Shown: positions 293 through 57,993 of the stretch, piece by piece | How positions within the stretch are numbered: position 1 is the first letter of the stretch | How the letters are laid out: every line of letters starts with the position of its first letter | Source of the DNA: a phage | Reading direction: 5' to 3' (one strand) | Assembly: GCA_037574385.1 (NCBI GenBank) | Contig: GCA_037574385.1_4529.1 | DNA: 64,000 nt | The notes under the pieces: generated by a model | The model's database searches: none | Seen by the model: the letters and a program-made list of their open reading frames with translations, nothing else | What the model was told of the DNA's origin: nothing | Program-made: the position numbers and the translations under genes

Positions 293-2379
293 TATCCTTG
301 GACAAATTTAAACGGAACCGATTCCAAATCCATTAAAGATGCTAACAGTTTCAATCCTTTAGGTGCACTGTTTATTTCTACGAATGAGGCAAAAGATACC
401 GGCTCATCTGATTCGATTTCACCCGTCATAGCAACCACCTCGCCTGTTTCCATGAGAACATCACCGTCGTAAATGACTGCTTCATCCAACTGGTCAGAGG
501 ACATGACTTCGGCTTGAATAAATTTAAGGTTGGATTCTAAACCTGCACCAGTGTCAGATGACGCATCTGTAATTTTATTTATCTGCAAGAGAATGCCTCT
601 AGGCAAAATAATTTCTTGCTCATTAGGGTGATTACTCAACTGTCCTGGATAAATCACGTTAACTTTATGAGCACCATCAATAGCCCATCCAACGTTAACA
701 CGGATTTGTTCTGGTGCATGCATAGCTGTTCTTACTTGACTAGGAGAAATAGTAACACCTTCGTCATTATTGTCAATGTTAAGCTCTTTGCGAACTTCTT
801 CAGGAGCAAGTCCAAGGGCAACGTTTTCTTTAAACCCGCCAAAAATAATAGGAGCTAATGAAGTAGAAACATAGTTTCTGAAGTAGAATACCTTATTTTT
901 AACCATTGCTTCATAAATAGGCATTCTGATAGACTGAGCTCTATACAACGTTAGTCCTTCAGGTAAACGGTCTCCGTTTAAAAACGCTGAATCAAGACCA
1001 TCAATAGCGCGTTTAACTTCATCTTCATCTGCAACATCGTAAAAATCTGGTTTATAACGTCCTAACAACATATTATTGATATCGGTATACGCAGAAGAGG
1101 CATATTCACGAATAGCTCGTTTTTCAGCAACAGAGTATTGTTTAGGGTCCCGATTCATTGTTATATTAAAGGTGCCTCTAGCCGATTCTCGTGCATAAGT
1201 ATACATCACATTAGACAAGAACGCTGATTTACGTTGTTTCCAAGTTTTTTCAGATACTTCAGCTAAAACGTCGTCAGCCAGTTGGAAATTATCTCGTCTA
1301 AAATCTTCAAACCATTCGTCTTTAATAGAGTCTGCAATTTCGTTTGCAGCTTCAACAAAAGCAGCTAATGCTTTAACAGATGTTGTTTTTTCGGTTTTAA
1401 TTTTCTTAGCAAACTTTTCTAAAGTTGGCTTAATAACACTACCATAAGAAACTTCATCAGCAAATCTAAAGGATTCATCAATACGATTATAAATCTTATT
1501 TTCGATATCAGCAACTAAAGTGCCTTTTGCTGTGGATGATGCTTGGGCTAGTACGATTTCATATGCTTCAGGAAGTAATTCGGCTGTAGCTGGGCCACTA
1601 ACTTCTTTAGCAGAATTTTCGTATTTCTGGAATAACTCACCTTCTTGGCGGTCAGCTTCTAAAGATTGGCTTGCTGCAATAGCACGACGAGAAATTTTAG
1701 TATGAGCAATAACAGGCTTATCTTTACGTTTTTCTTCTACAGCAGCAATAGAACCAGCGATAGCAGTTTCTTTGGTGACCGTTTCGCCGGTCTTTTTACT
1801 CACATAAACTTCGCCAACATCAGAATCTACTTTCGTGTACAACTCTGTGTTAATGTTAGGGATGCCTTTAATATCTTCAATGTTGGCATTTTTACGAACC
1901 ATCATCACATAGGTGTGTTTACCTGTGAATTGATACATTGCAGACAATACTTTAAAACGACCACCAGTTTTAGTAGAAACTAAACGAGCAAGAAGAGTTT
2001 GAAGCTGCTGACCACGTCCTTTCAATTTCTTGGTAGGGAATCGGAACAGAACTGCATCCATACGAAGAGCTTTAACCTGTTCATATACTGTATTGAAAAT
2101 GGTGTTGATTGCATCAATAGGAGCAGGACCAAGGCCATTTTTCAATTCAGCGAGATTACCCTTTTCAGACAGACTCATAATAACAACATGAGCATATTTA
2201 TCGCCAAGTTTAACTTGTTTTACAGCGTCGCCTTCAGAAAGGTAAGAGAATAAGCGAACTACGATGTTTGTATCGATATCACCAATTTTCCAGACTTGTG
2301 GAACTTTAGCTTTAGGGTTCAAATTGACGACAGGAAGACTGCCTTCAGATTCAAACACTTCATTTAATTGTTCAGACAT
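292..2379 (-). CDS. alt: Alt-like ADP-ribosyltransferase (packaged internal head protein)
   Basis: 695 aa; size and sequence character match T4 Alt (682 aa); lies immediately downstream of DNA ligase as in T4. Confidence 0.8.
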   Translation of the reverse strand: MSEQLNEVFESEGSLPVVNLNPKAKVPQVWKIGDIDTNIVVRLFSYLSEGDAVKQVKLGDKYAHVVIMSLSEKGNLAELKNGLGPAPIDAINTIFNTVYEQVKALRMDAVLFRFPTKKLKGRGQQLQTLLARLVSTKTGGRFKVLSAMYQFTGKHTYVMMVRKNANIEDIKGIPNINTELYTKVDSDVGEVYVSKKTGETVTKETAIAGSIAAVEEKRKDKPVIAHTKISRRAIAASQSLEADRQEGELFQKYENSAKEVSGPATAELLPEAYEIVLAQASSTAKGTLVADIENKIYNRIDESFRFADEVSYGSVIKPTLEKFAKKIKTEKTTSVKALAAFVEAANEIADSIKDEWFEDFRRDNFQLADDVLAEVSEKTWKQRKSAFLSNVMYTYARESARGTFNITMNRDPKQYSVAEKRAIREYASSAYTDINNMLLGRYKPDFYDVADEDEVKRAIDGLDSAFLNGDRLPEGLTLYRAQSIRMPIYEAMVKNKVFYFRNYVSTSLAPIIFGGFKENVALGLAPEEVRKELNIDNNDEGVTISPSQVRTAMHAPEQIRVNVGWAIDGAHKVNVIYPGQLSNHPNEQEIILPRGILLQINKITDASSDTGAGLESNLKFIQAEVMSSDQLDEAVIYDGDVLMETGEVVAMTGEIESDEPVSFASFVEINSAPKGLKLLASLMDLESVPFKFVQG

Positions 2380-12798: not shown

Positions 12799-12826
12799 TT
12801 AGATTTCCTCAATTATCCATAGGAGC

Positions 12827-12856
12827 ATTATACTCTGCTCCCGAGAGTTTGTAAAC
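12827..12856 (-). promoter_or_regulatory. Early promoter module
   Basis: GTTTACAAACTCTCGGGAGCAGAGTATAATGCTCC; near-identical to the module upstream of ndd. Confidence 0.55.
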
Positions 12857-13080
12857 TATTTTACTAAAGATTCAATATACTCATGAAGAGCTTTAGTCGC
12901 TACTGCCCACTTGTTCTGATATTCATTTTTCAGATTAGCACGAGACTGAACTAACAAGCGGTCGTTAGTCGGAGGCAAAGATTCTAATCGTTGAATCTGA
13001 CGGCCATAAATCATAGCCGCCATTTCAGAGTCATAGATAAGTCCTTTAAGGTATTCATGCTGTTCTTTAGTCATTGACAT
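12856..13080 (-). CDS. Hypothetical protein
   Basis: 74-aa ORF. Confidence 0.45.
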   Translation of the reverse strand: MSMTKEQHEYLKGLIYDSEMAAMIYGRQIQRLESLPPTNDRLLVQSRANLKNEYQNKWAVATKALHEYIESLVK

Positions 13081-13361
13081 TTTTCCTCTTTTAAACCACT
13101 ACGATAATAACATAACATAGTCTTCTGGTCATGTACATATCTTTTTACGTCGTTTAACCAGATACGAAATTCTTGAGAGTCTTCAAATGGCATTCCAACC
13201 CATGGATTACCATCAATAACCTTTACCTGCCATTTCTGGTTATATTCAACAATAGATTCAGGCCATTGCGGATGTAAAGTTTCTTTAGGGCTTAAGGGCA
13301 CATCTTGGGCACATCCAGCCAAAATGCCAATAGATAATACAACTGCGGTTAATTTAATCAT
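13071..13361 (-). CDS. Outer-membrane lipoprotein, o-spanin candidate (Rz1 equivalent)
   Basis: 96 aa; signal peptide with lipobox LAGC; immediately downstream of and 4-nt overlapping the i-spanin candidate; T4 spanins (pseT.3/pseT.2) map to this neighbourhood. Confidence 0.55.
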   Translation of the reverse strand: MIKLTAVVLSIGILAGCAQDVPLSPKETLHPQWPESIVEYNQKWQVKVIDGNPWVGMPFEDSQEFRIWLNDVKRYVHDQKTMLCYYRSGLKEEKCQ

Positions 13362-13714
13362 TCTGAGAGCTTCCTGAGGTCTTCTGCAAAGGAATCGAAG
13401 GACCTGTTGATTTGTTTTTCAACCAATCCTGGTTTACTTGCCACCACGTTCTTCTTCTTCGAATCCTTACGGAGCTTTTCATTTTCAGCCTTAAGTTGGT
13501 CAACTAAAACACGGTTCTTATAAGTCATTTCTTCGATTGACTGATATTGAACTTTGAAGTCGTCTAATACTTTAGCATTGTTTTTAGCAGTCTCTTTAAC
13601 AGAAGCCAATTCAGTATTCAACGAATCAACTTTGTTGTTTAAGACAACTATTGTTACAGTAGAAACTAGAGCAAAAGCTGCTACTATAGCATAAATCGGA
13701 TTTACTTTAAGCAT
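13358..13714 (-). CDS. Inner-membrane-anchored coiled-coil protein, i-spanin candidate (Rz equivalent)
   Basis: 118 aa; N-terminal TM segment (IYAIVAAFALVSTVTIVVL) followed by charged coiled-coil-like periplasmic region. Confidence 0.55.
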   Translation of the reverse strand: MLKVNPIYAIVAAFALVSTVTIVVLNNKVDSLNTELASVKETAKNNAKVLDDFKVQYQSIEEMTYKNRVLVDQLKAENEKLRKDSKKKNVVASKPGLVEKQINRSFDSFAEDLRKLSE

Positions 13715-55608: not shown

Positions 55609-56217
55609 TCAGTAACTGACAATAGTCAGATTCCAGATTGTATAATTTCCATCTTGAATAATAGAATCTACACGCAGTGTAGTCCCTATAGGGAGCATAA
55701 ATTCACATTCGTCAGATATAAGTCTAGCATTAGACCGTCTTGTCGCTTCAGGGAAAGCTCCATTGAACTCACAAGACGGCGCAGCCAGAATCATATTAAG
55801 CATATGTTCACGGAAGTTGAAAGCAAATGGTGCATCTTTGATGCAGAACATATTAAATGTTCCATAAAAATTATATGAAGCAAAGTTACGTGCTACACCG
55901 AACACCGGGCTGAAGCTCATTACTCTGTCAAATTTAATAATACTACCAACGCCTTTATCATCAAGTGTGGCCATAGTTTTCTTAGAGATTCCACGATACA
56001 TTGTCTCAGGAACAGAAGACGACCAATTTCTACGAACAATTGCACTTAAATCTTGTTGGATGCTATCAGGCTTGTTTTCCATACACTGCCACAGTATACT
56101 TTGTTCAATGTCGCTGAATTGACTATCAATTTCGTACTGCAATACATCTTGATATTCGGGGTTTTGAGCACGACGAACCATTTCTTCAATTTCACACTCG
56201 TTATACGGCATAAACAT
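55609..56217 (-). CDS. Mod-type ADP-ribosyltransferase (ModA/ModB family)
   Basis: 202 aa (T4 ModA 200 aa, ModB 207 aa); ART R-S-E signature: YRGIS, SFSPVFG, and E-x-E (DECEF). Only one copy is present. Confidence 0.7.
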   Translation of the reverse strand: MFMPYNECEIEEMVRRAQNPEYQDVLQYEIDSQFSDIEQSILWQCMENKPDSIQQDLSAIVRRNWSSSVPETMYRGISKKTMATLDDKGVGSIIKFDRVMSFSPVFGVARNFASYNFYGTFNMFCIKDAPFAFNFREHMLNMILAAPSCEFNGAFPEATRRSNARLISDECEFMLPIGTTLRVDSIIQDGNYTIWNLTIVSY

Positions 56218-56274
56218 TTAGGTTTCTCCTGTGGTTGATAAAGGTATAGTATCATCGTCGGTAGAGTTTGTACA

Positions 56275-56409
56275 CTAAAAATTCAACATTTTCAAATGAA
56301 TGATTTTGTATAATCGAGATAAAGGGTCATATTCTAAGTCTTCAATTTCCACAATCTCAAATCTAGAGATACTTGAGACCATGTACTCTTGTTCAGATTG
56401 ACATGTCAT
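56275..56409 (-). CDS. Small protein (44 aa)
   Basis: Hand-called: MTCQSEQEYMVSSISRFEIVEIEDLEYDPLSRLYKIIHLKMLNF; strong SD TGGAGGT and PeSL-type promoter (GTTTAC-N17-TATGAT) directly upstream. Confidence 0.45.
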   Translation of the reverse strand: MTCQSEQEYMVSSISRFEIVEIEDLEYDPLSRLYKIIHLKMLNF

Positions 56410-56419
56410 GATAGACCTC

Positions 56420-56466
56420 CATTTAAAGATAAGCCTATCATAACACGAGAGGAGGGAATGTAAACT
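56420..56466 (-). promoter_or_regulatory. Early promoter module upstream of 44-aa ORF
   Basis: GTTTACATTCCCTCCTCTCGTGTTATGATAGGC...GGAGGTCTATCATG. Confidence 0.45.
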
Positions 56467-56629
56467 ACTTTTTAAGCTTTCCGACTAAAGGTCCATCAGG
56501 GCCAGGTTGTTCTAACATGAATGGTGATGCTTTAAGAAGCAATGCCAACCCTTTCACCATTCGATACCATATCTCAAAGTCCTTTTTCTTGGTTTCCACT
56601 AAGAATTGCTCTTTCAAATGCTCTTTCAT
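56462..56629 (-). CDS. Small protein (55 aa)
   Basis: Hand-called: MKEHLKEQFLVETKKKDFEIWYRMVKGLALLLKASPFMLEQPGPDGPLVGKLKK; ATGA overlap with upstream ORF stop; SD GGAG. Confidence 0.4.
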
Positions 56630-56817
56630 TTCCAAGGACTCCACGGTGGTGGGTCGTCATAATAAGAGGCAAGGTCTTTCAGGGCTTCAACAGGTAAACT
56701 AAAGCCATGTCGTTGTATAATACTATCTAGTTCATCAACAAGTTCACTACGATGCACTTTAGGAGCCTCAACTTCAGGCTCATCAAACATACTCATCAAG
56801 TCCATATTATTCACCAA
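56626..56817 (-). CDS. Hypothetical protein
   Basis: 63-aa acidic ORF. Confidence 0.45.
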   Translation of the reverse strand: MVNNMDLMSMFDEPEVEAPKVHRSELVDELDSIIQRHGFSLPVEALKDLASYYDDPPPWSPWK

Positions 56818-57271
56818 GATAAAAACTAGCCGGTTCAGAGAATGTTTCTAGTGCTACACCTTTTGTCTTAAAAAATTTCCAAATAGCTCGTTGCAAATGG
56901 GTTAAATCTGCTAATGATGTAATAAAGTATTTTTTGGCAAAATACTTATGGTCTCGCTTTTCAAACAGGTCTAAACGCTTTTCAGGATTCACATAAACGG
57001 CATTTTCTGTAGATTCATACCCTAAATCCTTTATGCCTTCTTCAAGACTAAACGGAGAATTTTTAGAATGAGTAATAGCTCCAACTCGCTCTACACGAAT
57101 TTTGTAACCTTTAGGAATCTGCAATTTGCAGAATTCTTCTACGATATATTGCGGATTATTTAGACTTTTGTTAATGAGAATAGCTATTTCTAGCGGAGTC
57201 TTATCTTCTACTGGTATATGTTTAAACGACTTGGCTTCAAGCAAATACATTTTAAATAGCATAGCATCCAT
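56807..57271 (-). CDS. Hypothetical protein
   Basis: 154-aa ORF in the mod-soc interval. Confidence 0.5.
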   Translation of the reverse strand: MDAMLFKMYLLEAKSFKHIPVEDKTPLEIAILINKSLNNPQYIVEEFCKLQIPKGYKIRVERVGAITHSKNSPFSLEEGIKDLGYESTENAVYVNPEKRLDLFEKRDHKYFAKKYFITSLADLTHLQRAIWKFFKTKGVALETFSEPASFYLGE

Positions 57272-57888: not shown

Positions 57889-57954
57889 ATTGTTCTCCTC
57901 TTGAGTAGGTAAGAATATCTTAACACAGTTTTTAGTGGTTGTAAACTCTAGAAA

Positions 57955-57985
57955 CGAAAAAAAAAAGGAATCCCGAAGGATTCCT
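57955..57985 (-). terminator. Strong intrinsic terminator after soc
   Basis: AGGAAUCC-UUCG-GGAUUCCU (8-bp stem) followed by a 10-nt U-tract. Confidence 0.7.
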
Positions 57986-57993
57986 TAAATTAT

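Follow-up and report, generated by a model that had tools for sequence, protein, structure and literature searches.

What is encoded upstream of the mod gene of a T-even phage when the track of open reading frames (ORFs) leaves a gap of about 400 bp there? In the window, by which the whole 64-kb stretch of phage DNA analysed here is meant, such a gap covers 56275–56629. The first-pass annotation placed in it two unannotated small ORFs with a promoter cassette of their own. The gene expected near this position in T4 and RB69 is modB. ModB of these two phages is a mono-ADP-ribosyltransferase of the R-S-EXE type that also RNAylates the ribosomal proteins S1 and L2; T4 ModB has been noted as an enzyme attaching RNA chains to ribosomal proteins. 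The present analysis indicates that what looks like a gap in the ORF track holds the ordinary early-region genes of a T-even phage. The best explanation, which is held with high confidence, is that this is the modA.2-to-modA stretch of the early cluster, composed of a ModA.4-like gene, the modB promoter, and the remnant of a deleted modB.

Results

Identity and gene order of the locus

A megablast search with 56150–56850 matched 155 phage records. All of them are Mosigvirus RB69-like T-even phages with identities of 90–97%, and the 64-kb window itself is from an RB69-like T-even phage of this genus. The gene order was read from the annotated genomes of O157 typing phage 3 (O157tp3), phiC120, ESh15, and RB69 together with T4, and it runs soc, several small ORFs, mrh, modA.2, RB69ORF020c, modB, modA, srd, dda.1, and dda. 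Every relevant gene in the neighbourhood of 56275–56629 is carried by the minus strand. The coordinates of the features are given in Table 1.

PHROG profile matches were found for every ORF of the locus. The 154-aa ORF is Mrh. The modA.2 homologue, which has the name modA.2 in the RB69 annotation, matched phrog_1647 with an E-value of 9.8e-27, and its C-terminus ...LASYYDDPPPWSPWK matches ...LASYHLDPPPWAPWAK of T4 ModA.2. The 202-aa product at the modA position matched phrog_832, 'RNA polymerase ADP-ribosylase' (E 3.6e-38). It aligns with both T4 ModA and ModB, and the YRG, SFS, and ECE motifs are present. Pfam gave no match for any of the five locus proteins tested, the intact ADP-ribosyltransferases included.

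Table 1. Coordinates of the features at the modA.2-to-modA locus in the window
Feature	Position	Strand	Remarks
Nearest upstream early promoter (predicted), GTTTAC-N18-TAAGAT	~57944-57915		Just after the soc terminator; corresponds to RB69 Pe:14950
modA.2 homologue, 59 aa	56626..56805	-	ATG 56805; alternative TTG start 56817
GGAG Shine-Dalgarno-like element	56639..56642	-	9 nt 5' of the 54-aa ORF ATG, within the modA.2 CDS
ATGA stop/start overlap, modA.2 / 54-aa ORF	56626..56629	-	modA.2 TGA within the ATGA
54-aa ORF	56465..56629	-	ATG 56629 to TAG 56465; 165 nt (54 codons + stop)
Predicted T4-type early promoter of modB	56437..56476	-	UP-like element, -35, 17-nt spacer, -10
GGAGG ribosome-binding site of modB	56416..56420	-	6 nt 5' of the remnant ATG
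44-aa ORF (modB remnant)	56275..56409	-	ATG 56409 to TAG 56275; 135 nt
Deletion junction, single copy of the 9-bp direct repeat AATCTGAAC	56391..56399	-	Repeat flanks the 447-nt gap
Weaker early-type promoter (predicted) upstream of modA, GTGTAC-N18-TACTAT	56246..56275	-	Corresponds to predicted RB69 Pe:12829
modA-position ADP-ribosyltransferase gene, intact, 202 aa	55609..56217	-	AGGAG just upstream

An in-frame deletion within modB

The 44-aa ORF was aligned with the 582-nt modB genes of O157tp3 and RB69, and a single clean gap of 447 nt appeared in the window. In most relatives, the match of the 701-nt query extended over 1148 nt in two pieces. The junction in the window carries one copy of the repeat listed in Table 1, while each of the seven intact modB genes that were checked has two copies exactly 447 bp apart (offsets 82 and 529). 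The deletion may have come about between these repeats by replication slippage or by microhomology-mediated illegitimate recombination. Because 447 nt corresponds to 149 codons, the reading frame was preserved, and so were the ATG start and the TAG stop of the intact gene. The opposite history, an insertion into an ancestral 44-aa gene that produced the 193-aa form, conflicts with the fact that full-length ModB is homologous to T4 ModB over the 'inserted' part as well.

Of the 193 codons of modB, the remnant retains approximately codons 1–6 and the final 38, and its protein consists of MTCQSE joined to QEYMVS...KMLNF. By tblastn, it was 95% identical to residues 153–193 of RB69 ModB, and it matched the C-terminal part of the phrog_26695 profile with an E-value of 2.7e-21. 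The GGAGG before modB is conserved in the relatives and in T4. The 44-aa ORF had been taken as unannotated. It is in fact annotated as a 135-nt CDS in phiC120, ESh15, and ESh27, and it is modB with the 447-bp in-frame deletion.

The effect of the deletion on the catalytic motifs was read from the protein alignment with T4 and RB69 ModB. The catalytic arginine motif LYRG and the Ser-x-Thr motif SFTT both fall inside the gap. The ExE motif is retained within SEQEYMV (remnant residues 5–11), which is aligned with EQE of the T4 and RB69 proteins. The arginine of LYRG corresponds to R73 of T4 ModB, where the R73A substitution abolishes both ADP-ribosylation and RNAylation (PMC10468400). Since LYRG, SFTT, and most of the NAD-binding fold are missing, the remnant cannot be an ADP-ribosyltransferase or an RNAylating enzyme. 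A tblastn search for a second modB in the 64-kb window using RB69 ModB found modA (33% identity) and the remnant and nothing else, and no modB at another position was found among the T-even phages examined. As read from the sequence, the phage would amount to a natural modB-null with modA retained, as far as the 64-kb window extends. Early in infection, the remnant probably still yields a 44-aa peptide, because the promoter, the ribosome-binding site, and the start and stop codons survive.

Repeated loss of modB in Mosigvirus

The same 447-bp deletion was detected with a junction-specific 37-mer in seven records, which correspond to five phages of different laboratories (phiE142, phiC120, ESh15, ESh27, and G2285). 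The carriers were counted with short junction queries (37 and 43 nt) under a stringent E-value cut-off; a 59-nt query also scored intact genes at 100% coverage. An origin of the deletion in faulty assembly or sequencing of the window has a practically negligible probability. Mis-assembly is possible at short direct repeats. However, modern assembly would not collapse a repeat of as little as 9 bp, and the identical junction recurs in five phages whose sequencing was independent and whose origins include Mexico, the USA, and Germany.

The carriers of the 447-bp deletion differ from each other in the flanking promoter spacer, in the sequence of the remnant, and in which allele of the 54-aa ORF they have. 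The deletion is present on at least two flanking haplotypes. Either the 447-bp allele is old and was moved by recombination, or it arose more than once at the same repeat.

A second deletion was found at the same gene. It removes 508 bp between ACAAA microhomologies and is out of frame; 18 codons remain. This deletion occurs in 15 records, which represent 12 phages including SSE1, p000v, F2, and PHB12. With both deletions summed, modB is not intact in about 22 of the 155 Mosigvirus records (about 14%). The modB gene has been lost at least twice independently in the genus, once through the 447-bp in-frame deletion and once through the 508-bp out-of-frame deletion.

These data bear on the idea that selection maintains the 44-aa ORF as a small gene with a function of its own, for example one for a micro-protein, built from the ExE loop and the C-terminal strands left of ModB, that binds the targets of ModB or ModA or modulates ModA. 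The deletion is exactly in frame and leaves the promoter, the GGAGG, the ATG, and the native stop intact. Of the five other carriers, four have the 44-codon frame intact, as does the window. The carriers come from different countries with different flanking haplotypes, which implies that the allele persists and spreads. However, in G2285, which shares the junction, an additional 1-nt insertion puts the remnant out of frame, which argues that the 44-aa peptide itself is not under selection. In addition, the 508-bp deletion removes nearly all of the peptide in 12 other phages, 44 residues taken from two ends of the ADP-ribosyltransferase (ART) fold are unlikely to fold alone, and an in-frame outcome has a prior of one in three anyway. 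A selected function of the 44-aa ORF is thus considered very unlikely. The recurrent outcome is the loss of ModB and not the keeping of a particular peptide.

The predicted early promoter between the two ORFs

The GTTTAC-N17-TATGAT module pointed out in the first-pass annotation is present on the minus strand at 56465–56437. It is composed of an A-rich, UP-like cttaaaaagta (56476–56466), GTTTAC (56465–56460), and TATGAT (56442–56437), and its 17-nt spacer ends in TGt, that is, TGn directly before the -10 hexamer. The modB ATG is located 27 nt downstream of the -10 hexamer. Among the 15 Mosigvirus sequences compared, neither hexamer varies, and the distance of 17 nt between them is constant.

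When the region was scanned with a generic sigma-70 pattern, no enrichment was seen (9 sites against 7.3 ± 2.5 expected). The motif of T4 early promoters was then defined as GTTTAC-N16-18-TAnnnT with a match of at least 5/6 to TATAAT, and 200 dinucleotide-preserving shuffles served as the control. In the window, the minus strand has 12 such motifs and the plus strand none; the shuffles gave 0.23 ± 0.49. All 12 sites are placed approximately 20–45 nt 5' of a Shine-Dalgarno sequence followed by an ATG.

In the early consensus of T4, GTTTAC occupies -36 to -31, sequence rich in A lies near -40, and the -10 element is conserved (PMC1524935; PMC2988021). In RB69, the promoter Pe:13466 was predicted by Nolan et al. 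(2006) at 13417–13466, just upstream of modB at 12815–13396 (PMC1524935, Additional File 3), and it was recorded there as one base short of their model (PMC1524935). The module in the window corresponds to this predicted RB69 promoter. The sequence upstream of T4 modB, which was read directly from the T4 sequence, shows GTTTAC-N18-TATGAT followed by GGAGG and ATG. GTTTAC-N17-TATGAT is hence a predicted sigma-70-dependent early promoter of the T4 type belonging to modB. It would now serve the remnant and possibly modA downstream too.

The same promoter had been proposed as a cassette shared by both ORFs. This assignment fails for the 54-aa ORF, because the promoter sits 3' of it and the G of GTTTAC is at the same time the final base of its TAG stop (56465). 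It follows that the modB promoter cannot drive the 54-aa ORF, which needs transcription from further upstream together with modA.2. At the 3' end of the remnant, the first G of the GTGTAC upstream of modA is the last base of the remnant TAG. Early transcription of the region would start from three promoters, located after soc, before modB, and before modA.

The 54-aa ORF

Both of the small ORFs with a preceding Shine-Dalgarno sequence exist as first described, and the length of 44 aa was correct. The second ORF encodes 54 aa, however, and not 55 aa. According to the ORF listing, an alternative GTG start at 56644 would give 59 aa. The reported coupling overlap with the upstream gene is also real, and it lies between modA.2 and the 54-aa ORF at 56629–56626. 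The same 4-nt overlap is seen in RB69, with the end of modA.2 at locus position 1299 and the start of ORF020c at 1296. The GGAG before the 54-aa ORF is kept in all aligned relatives.

The 54-aa ORF is the homologue of RB69ORF020c. Its residues 1–54 matched positions 1–62 of the 63 positions of the phrog_5790 profile with an E-value of 7.2e-23. It can hardly be called unannotated, since RB69ORF020c has been annotated since 2003 and the annotated CDS of phiC120 encodes a protein with 100% identity. A tblastn search found the ORF in 154 phage records, each with at least 80% query coverage and an open frame. Frame conservation across related phages, which had been named as the check on both ORFs, was found for the 54-aa ORF and holds in part for the remnant, which is frameshifted in G2285.

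Selection on the ORF was measured by the Nei-Gojobori method with 14 sequences. The pN/pS value was 0.41 in its own frame, and 0.90 and 1.00 in the two other frames. The values of the neighbours were 0.13 for modA.2, 0.16 for modA, and 0.09 for mrh. The 54-aa ORF is under moderate purifying selection, clearly weaker than that on the neighbours (0.09–0.16). The variation is concentrated in the N-terminal third, and the variable sites are distributed as 13, 8, and 15 over codon positions 1, 2, and 3. ESh27 and phiEC1 share a 12-nt in-frame deletion at the 5' end of the ORF between repeated GAAAGAGCA. It is the sole indel in the ORF body among the reliable records, and the ESh27 annotation retains the ATGA overlap despite the loss of 12 nt just after it. 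ECCR664 was left out of the frame arguments, as its gaps of 1–2 nt across several genes resemble sequencing error.

Two allele classes of the ORF were recognised. The window belongs to the phiC120 / LF82 class with 100% protein identity. The RB69 class is approximately 81–85% identical to the protein of the window; about 9 of the 54 residues differ, mostly in the N-terminal third. The AlphaFold model of the 54-aa protein is a single long helix (residues 2–34) with a Pro/Gly-rich tail of low confidence (mean pLDDT 74.6, pTM 0.40). The conserved PGPDGPLVGKLKK tail follows the predicted helix.

Relatives of the 54-aa protein

A word-indexed protein search with the 54-aa protein returned three clusters, all from Mosigvirus. 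Diverged relatives, which share a similar helix and a PDGPL(V/A)GK tail, came from an exhaustive profile search over 1.84 billion representative proteins. Among these relatives, P0004 has the tail ...DFEVWYRCMKAIALVLKAAPKMLEQPGPDGPLVGKLKK, and P0005 and P0007 have ...EIFERMVNATALLTKAGSAMIED...PCPDGPLAGKLK. The protein gp23 of the Citrobacter phage Merlin (Moonvirus), which is encoded upstream of mrh, is a member of phrog_5790 (E 3.6e-34). A scan of IMG/VR for relatives gave one locus, identical to phage phiE142. The ORF of JS98 in the same slot (L016:918-1151) was rejected as a homologue, since no BLASTP alignment was obtained and it belongs to a different PHROG.

T4 ModA.4 (54 aa) and JS98 ModA.4 share ...LLLKIGSKMMEE...PDGPLVGK, and the PDGPLVGK motif is common to T4 ModA.4 and the 54-aa protein. 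T4 ModA.4 matched phrog_5790 with an E-value of 2.5e-8 and the protein of the window with a BLASTP E-value of 1e-6. In the other direction, the 54-aa protein stayed below the cut-off against phrog_2681, the ModA.4 profile, where E ≤ 0.01 was not reached. The similarity suggests that the 54-aa protein is best described as a remote homologue of T4 ModA.4 that stands outside the PHROG of ModA.4.

An alternative is that the ORF is no gene at all and owes its conservation to non-coding signals, such as the UP element of the promoter or a structured RNA in the stretch from modA.2 to modB. The constraint is relatively weak, as seen from the pN/pS value and the spread of variable sites over the codon positions. 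The 3' end of the ORF overlaps the promoter, T4 has no ORF at that position, and the ORF is unannotated in ATK47 and some other records. The conservation of the 3' end could in part stem from the overlapping UP and -35 elements. However, the frame is open in all 154 records, pN/pS is lower in the annotated frame than in either of the other two, and the one indel in the body has a length of 12 nt and is in frame. The protein motifs are common to the homologues from Merlin, from metagenomes, and to ModA.4 of T4 and JS98 despite low DNA similarity, and no Rfam family was matched in 56100–56900. The non-gene explanation is accordingly regarded as highly improbable. By its sequence conservation, the 54-aa ORF appears to be a real conserved early gene of a small T-even protein family, and it is probably translated.

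The gene may be transcribed with mrh and modA.2 from the early promoter just 3' of soc, and its translation may be coupled to that of modA.2 through the ATGA overlap. The protein would most likely act as a small dispensable host-takeover protein that binds a host or phage partner. The grounds for this role are its small size, its helical nature, its position in the early cluster, and the general pattern of T4 early genes.

Discussion

The content of the locus is already known. RB69ORF020c, modB, and the RB69 promoters Pe:13466 and Pe:12829 are its annotated or published counterparts. A small new point is the repeated loss of modB in natural isolates via two different microhomology deletions, and a literature search found no paper describing modB deletions in Mosigvirus. 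A secondary new point is the link between the RB69ORF020c family and T4 ModA.4, which would give a slightly larger family of uncharacterised early proteins. No paper mentioning RB69ORF020c was found in the literature search.

A catalytically dead modB mutant of T4 gave a phage yield that was 4- to 12-fold lower (PMC10468400). With the modB-deleted isolates, naturally occurring modB-null phages are at hand for asking under which conditions ModB can be dispensed with. It is conceivable, but rather unlikely, that the loss of modB is adaptive because ModB activity, through ADP-ribosylation or RNAylation of ribosomal proteins, is costly on some hosts or is sensed by a host defence; the remnant or the ModA.4-like protein could then have a role of its own. 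If this were true, modB-null phages would win on hosts where ModB is costly or sensed.

The locus can be compared with four known systems. The first is modB of T4 and RB69. The remnant resembles it in its position between modA.2 and modA, in the early promoter, in the ribosome-binding site, and in the first codons (MTCQSE). It differs in its product, which has 44 aa instead of the 193 aa of the intact protein, as 149 internal codons are absent. The second is the class of T4-type early promoters (Pe). The predicted promoter in the window shares the A-rich stretch, GTTTAC, TGn with TATGAT, and the site 5' of an early gene, and no difference was found.

The third is T4 ModA.4. Like the 54-aa protein, ModA.4 has 54 aa, a similar helix (...LLLK..S.M.E...), the PDGPLVGK(L/R)K tail, and a location in the early cluster from soc to modB. 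On the other hand, the identity is about 37%, and the gene of T4 sits between srh and modA.3 rather than between modA.2 and modB. ModA.4 also lacks the WYR motif of the ORF020c group and has a longer linker before the tail. The last is RB69ORF020c. The length, the slot from modA.2 to the modB promoter, and the ATGA overlap are the same, and the identity to the annotated CDSs at the protein level is 81–100%. Nothing essential separates RB69ORF020c from the 54-aa ORF of the window, and the two differ in allele class.

Results and discussion

The coordinates of the features are collected in the table. The stop codon of the 44-aa modB remnant is overlapped by the early-type promoter GTGTAC-N18-TACTAT. 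Since this predicted promoter lies directly 5' of modA, expression of modA would require no read-through from the modB promoter. Further upstream, GTTTAC-N18-TAAGAT directly follows the soc terminator and precedes a Shine-Dalgarno sequence and ATG. It is the counterpart of the predicted RB69 promoter Pe:14950 and probably drives a transcript of mrh, modA.2 and the 54-aa ORF.

Positions of features in the window and in related phages
Feature	Record	Position	Strand	Remarks
Early-type promoter GTGTAC-N18-TACTAT	window	56246-56275	minus	immediately 5' of modA; counterpart of predicted RB69 Pe:12829
soc terminator and early promoter	window	57905-57990	minus	hairpin aaggaatcc-ttcg-ggattcctt and T run, then GTTTAC-N18-TAAGAT
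ATG after this promoter	window	57888	minus
modB with 508-bp deletion	SSE1 (L006)	1201-1274
mrh-like gene	RB69 (L007, AY303349)	653-1118		split into 'mrh' (653-862) and RB69ORF022c (933-1118)
modA.2 homologue	LF82-1 (L009)	1301-1504		204 nt
Duplication of ~12 nt	ATK47 (L010)	about 1655-1735		5' of modB promoter
77-aa ORF	JS98 (L016)	918-1151		phrog_14077; without annotation

The modB gene of Shigella phage SSE1 has lost 508 bp out of frame, with ACAAA microhomologies at both ends. The same deletion is present in vB_VIPECOMC06, and a junction search recovered it from 15 records that belong to 12 phages. Only 74 nt (18 codons) of modB are left, without annotation. This deletion is a second event, independent of the 447-bp deletion that produced the remnant. 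In the ESh15 and ESh27 records, the remnant carries the label 'ribosyltransferase'.

The window has the mrh-like gene (465 nt) in unbroken form, as do 12 of 14 relatives examined. In the RB69 record it is split by a 1-nt indel; this may reflect either a true frameshift or a long-standing sequencing error. The gene likewise has gaps in the low-quality ECCR664 record. The modA.2 homologue of LF82-1 contains a 24-nt in-frame insertion compared with the 180-nt gene in the window, another sign that small in-frame indels are frequent in the early cluster. The 59-aa modA.2 homologue is named 'molybdenum ABC transporter, periplasmic molybdenum-binding protein' by RAST-type annotations (ESh15, ESh27, AV117, moskry and others). 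This label is a propagated misannotation, apparently a name collision with bacterial modA.

In ATK47, the duplication creates a tandem GTTTAC immediately 5' of the modB promoter. It also alters the C-terminus of the 54-aa ORF (...KLKNS), the native stop being lost. Both modA.2 and this ORF are without annotation in the ATK47 RefSeq record.

In T4, no ORF lies between modA.2 and the early promoter of modB. In the Dhakavirus JS98, this interval holds the 77-aa ORF, which overlaps modA.2 by TAATG and has GTTTAC adjoining its stop codon. It occupies the same slot as the Mosigvirus 54-aa ORF but has no sequence relationship with it. The slot seems to be occupied by differing small genes, genus by genus.
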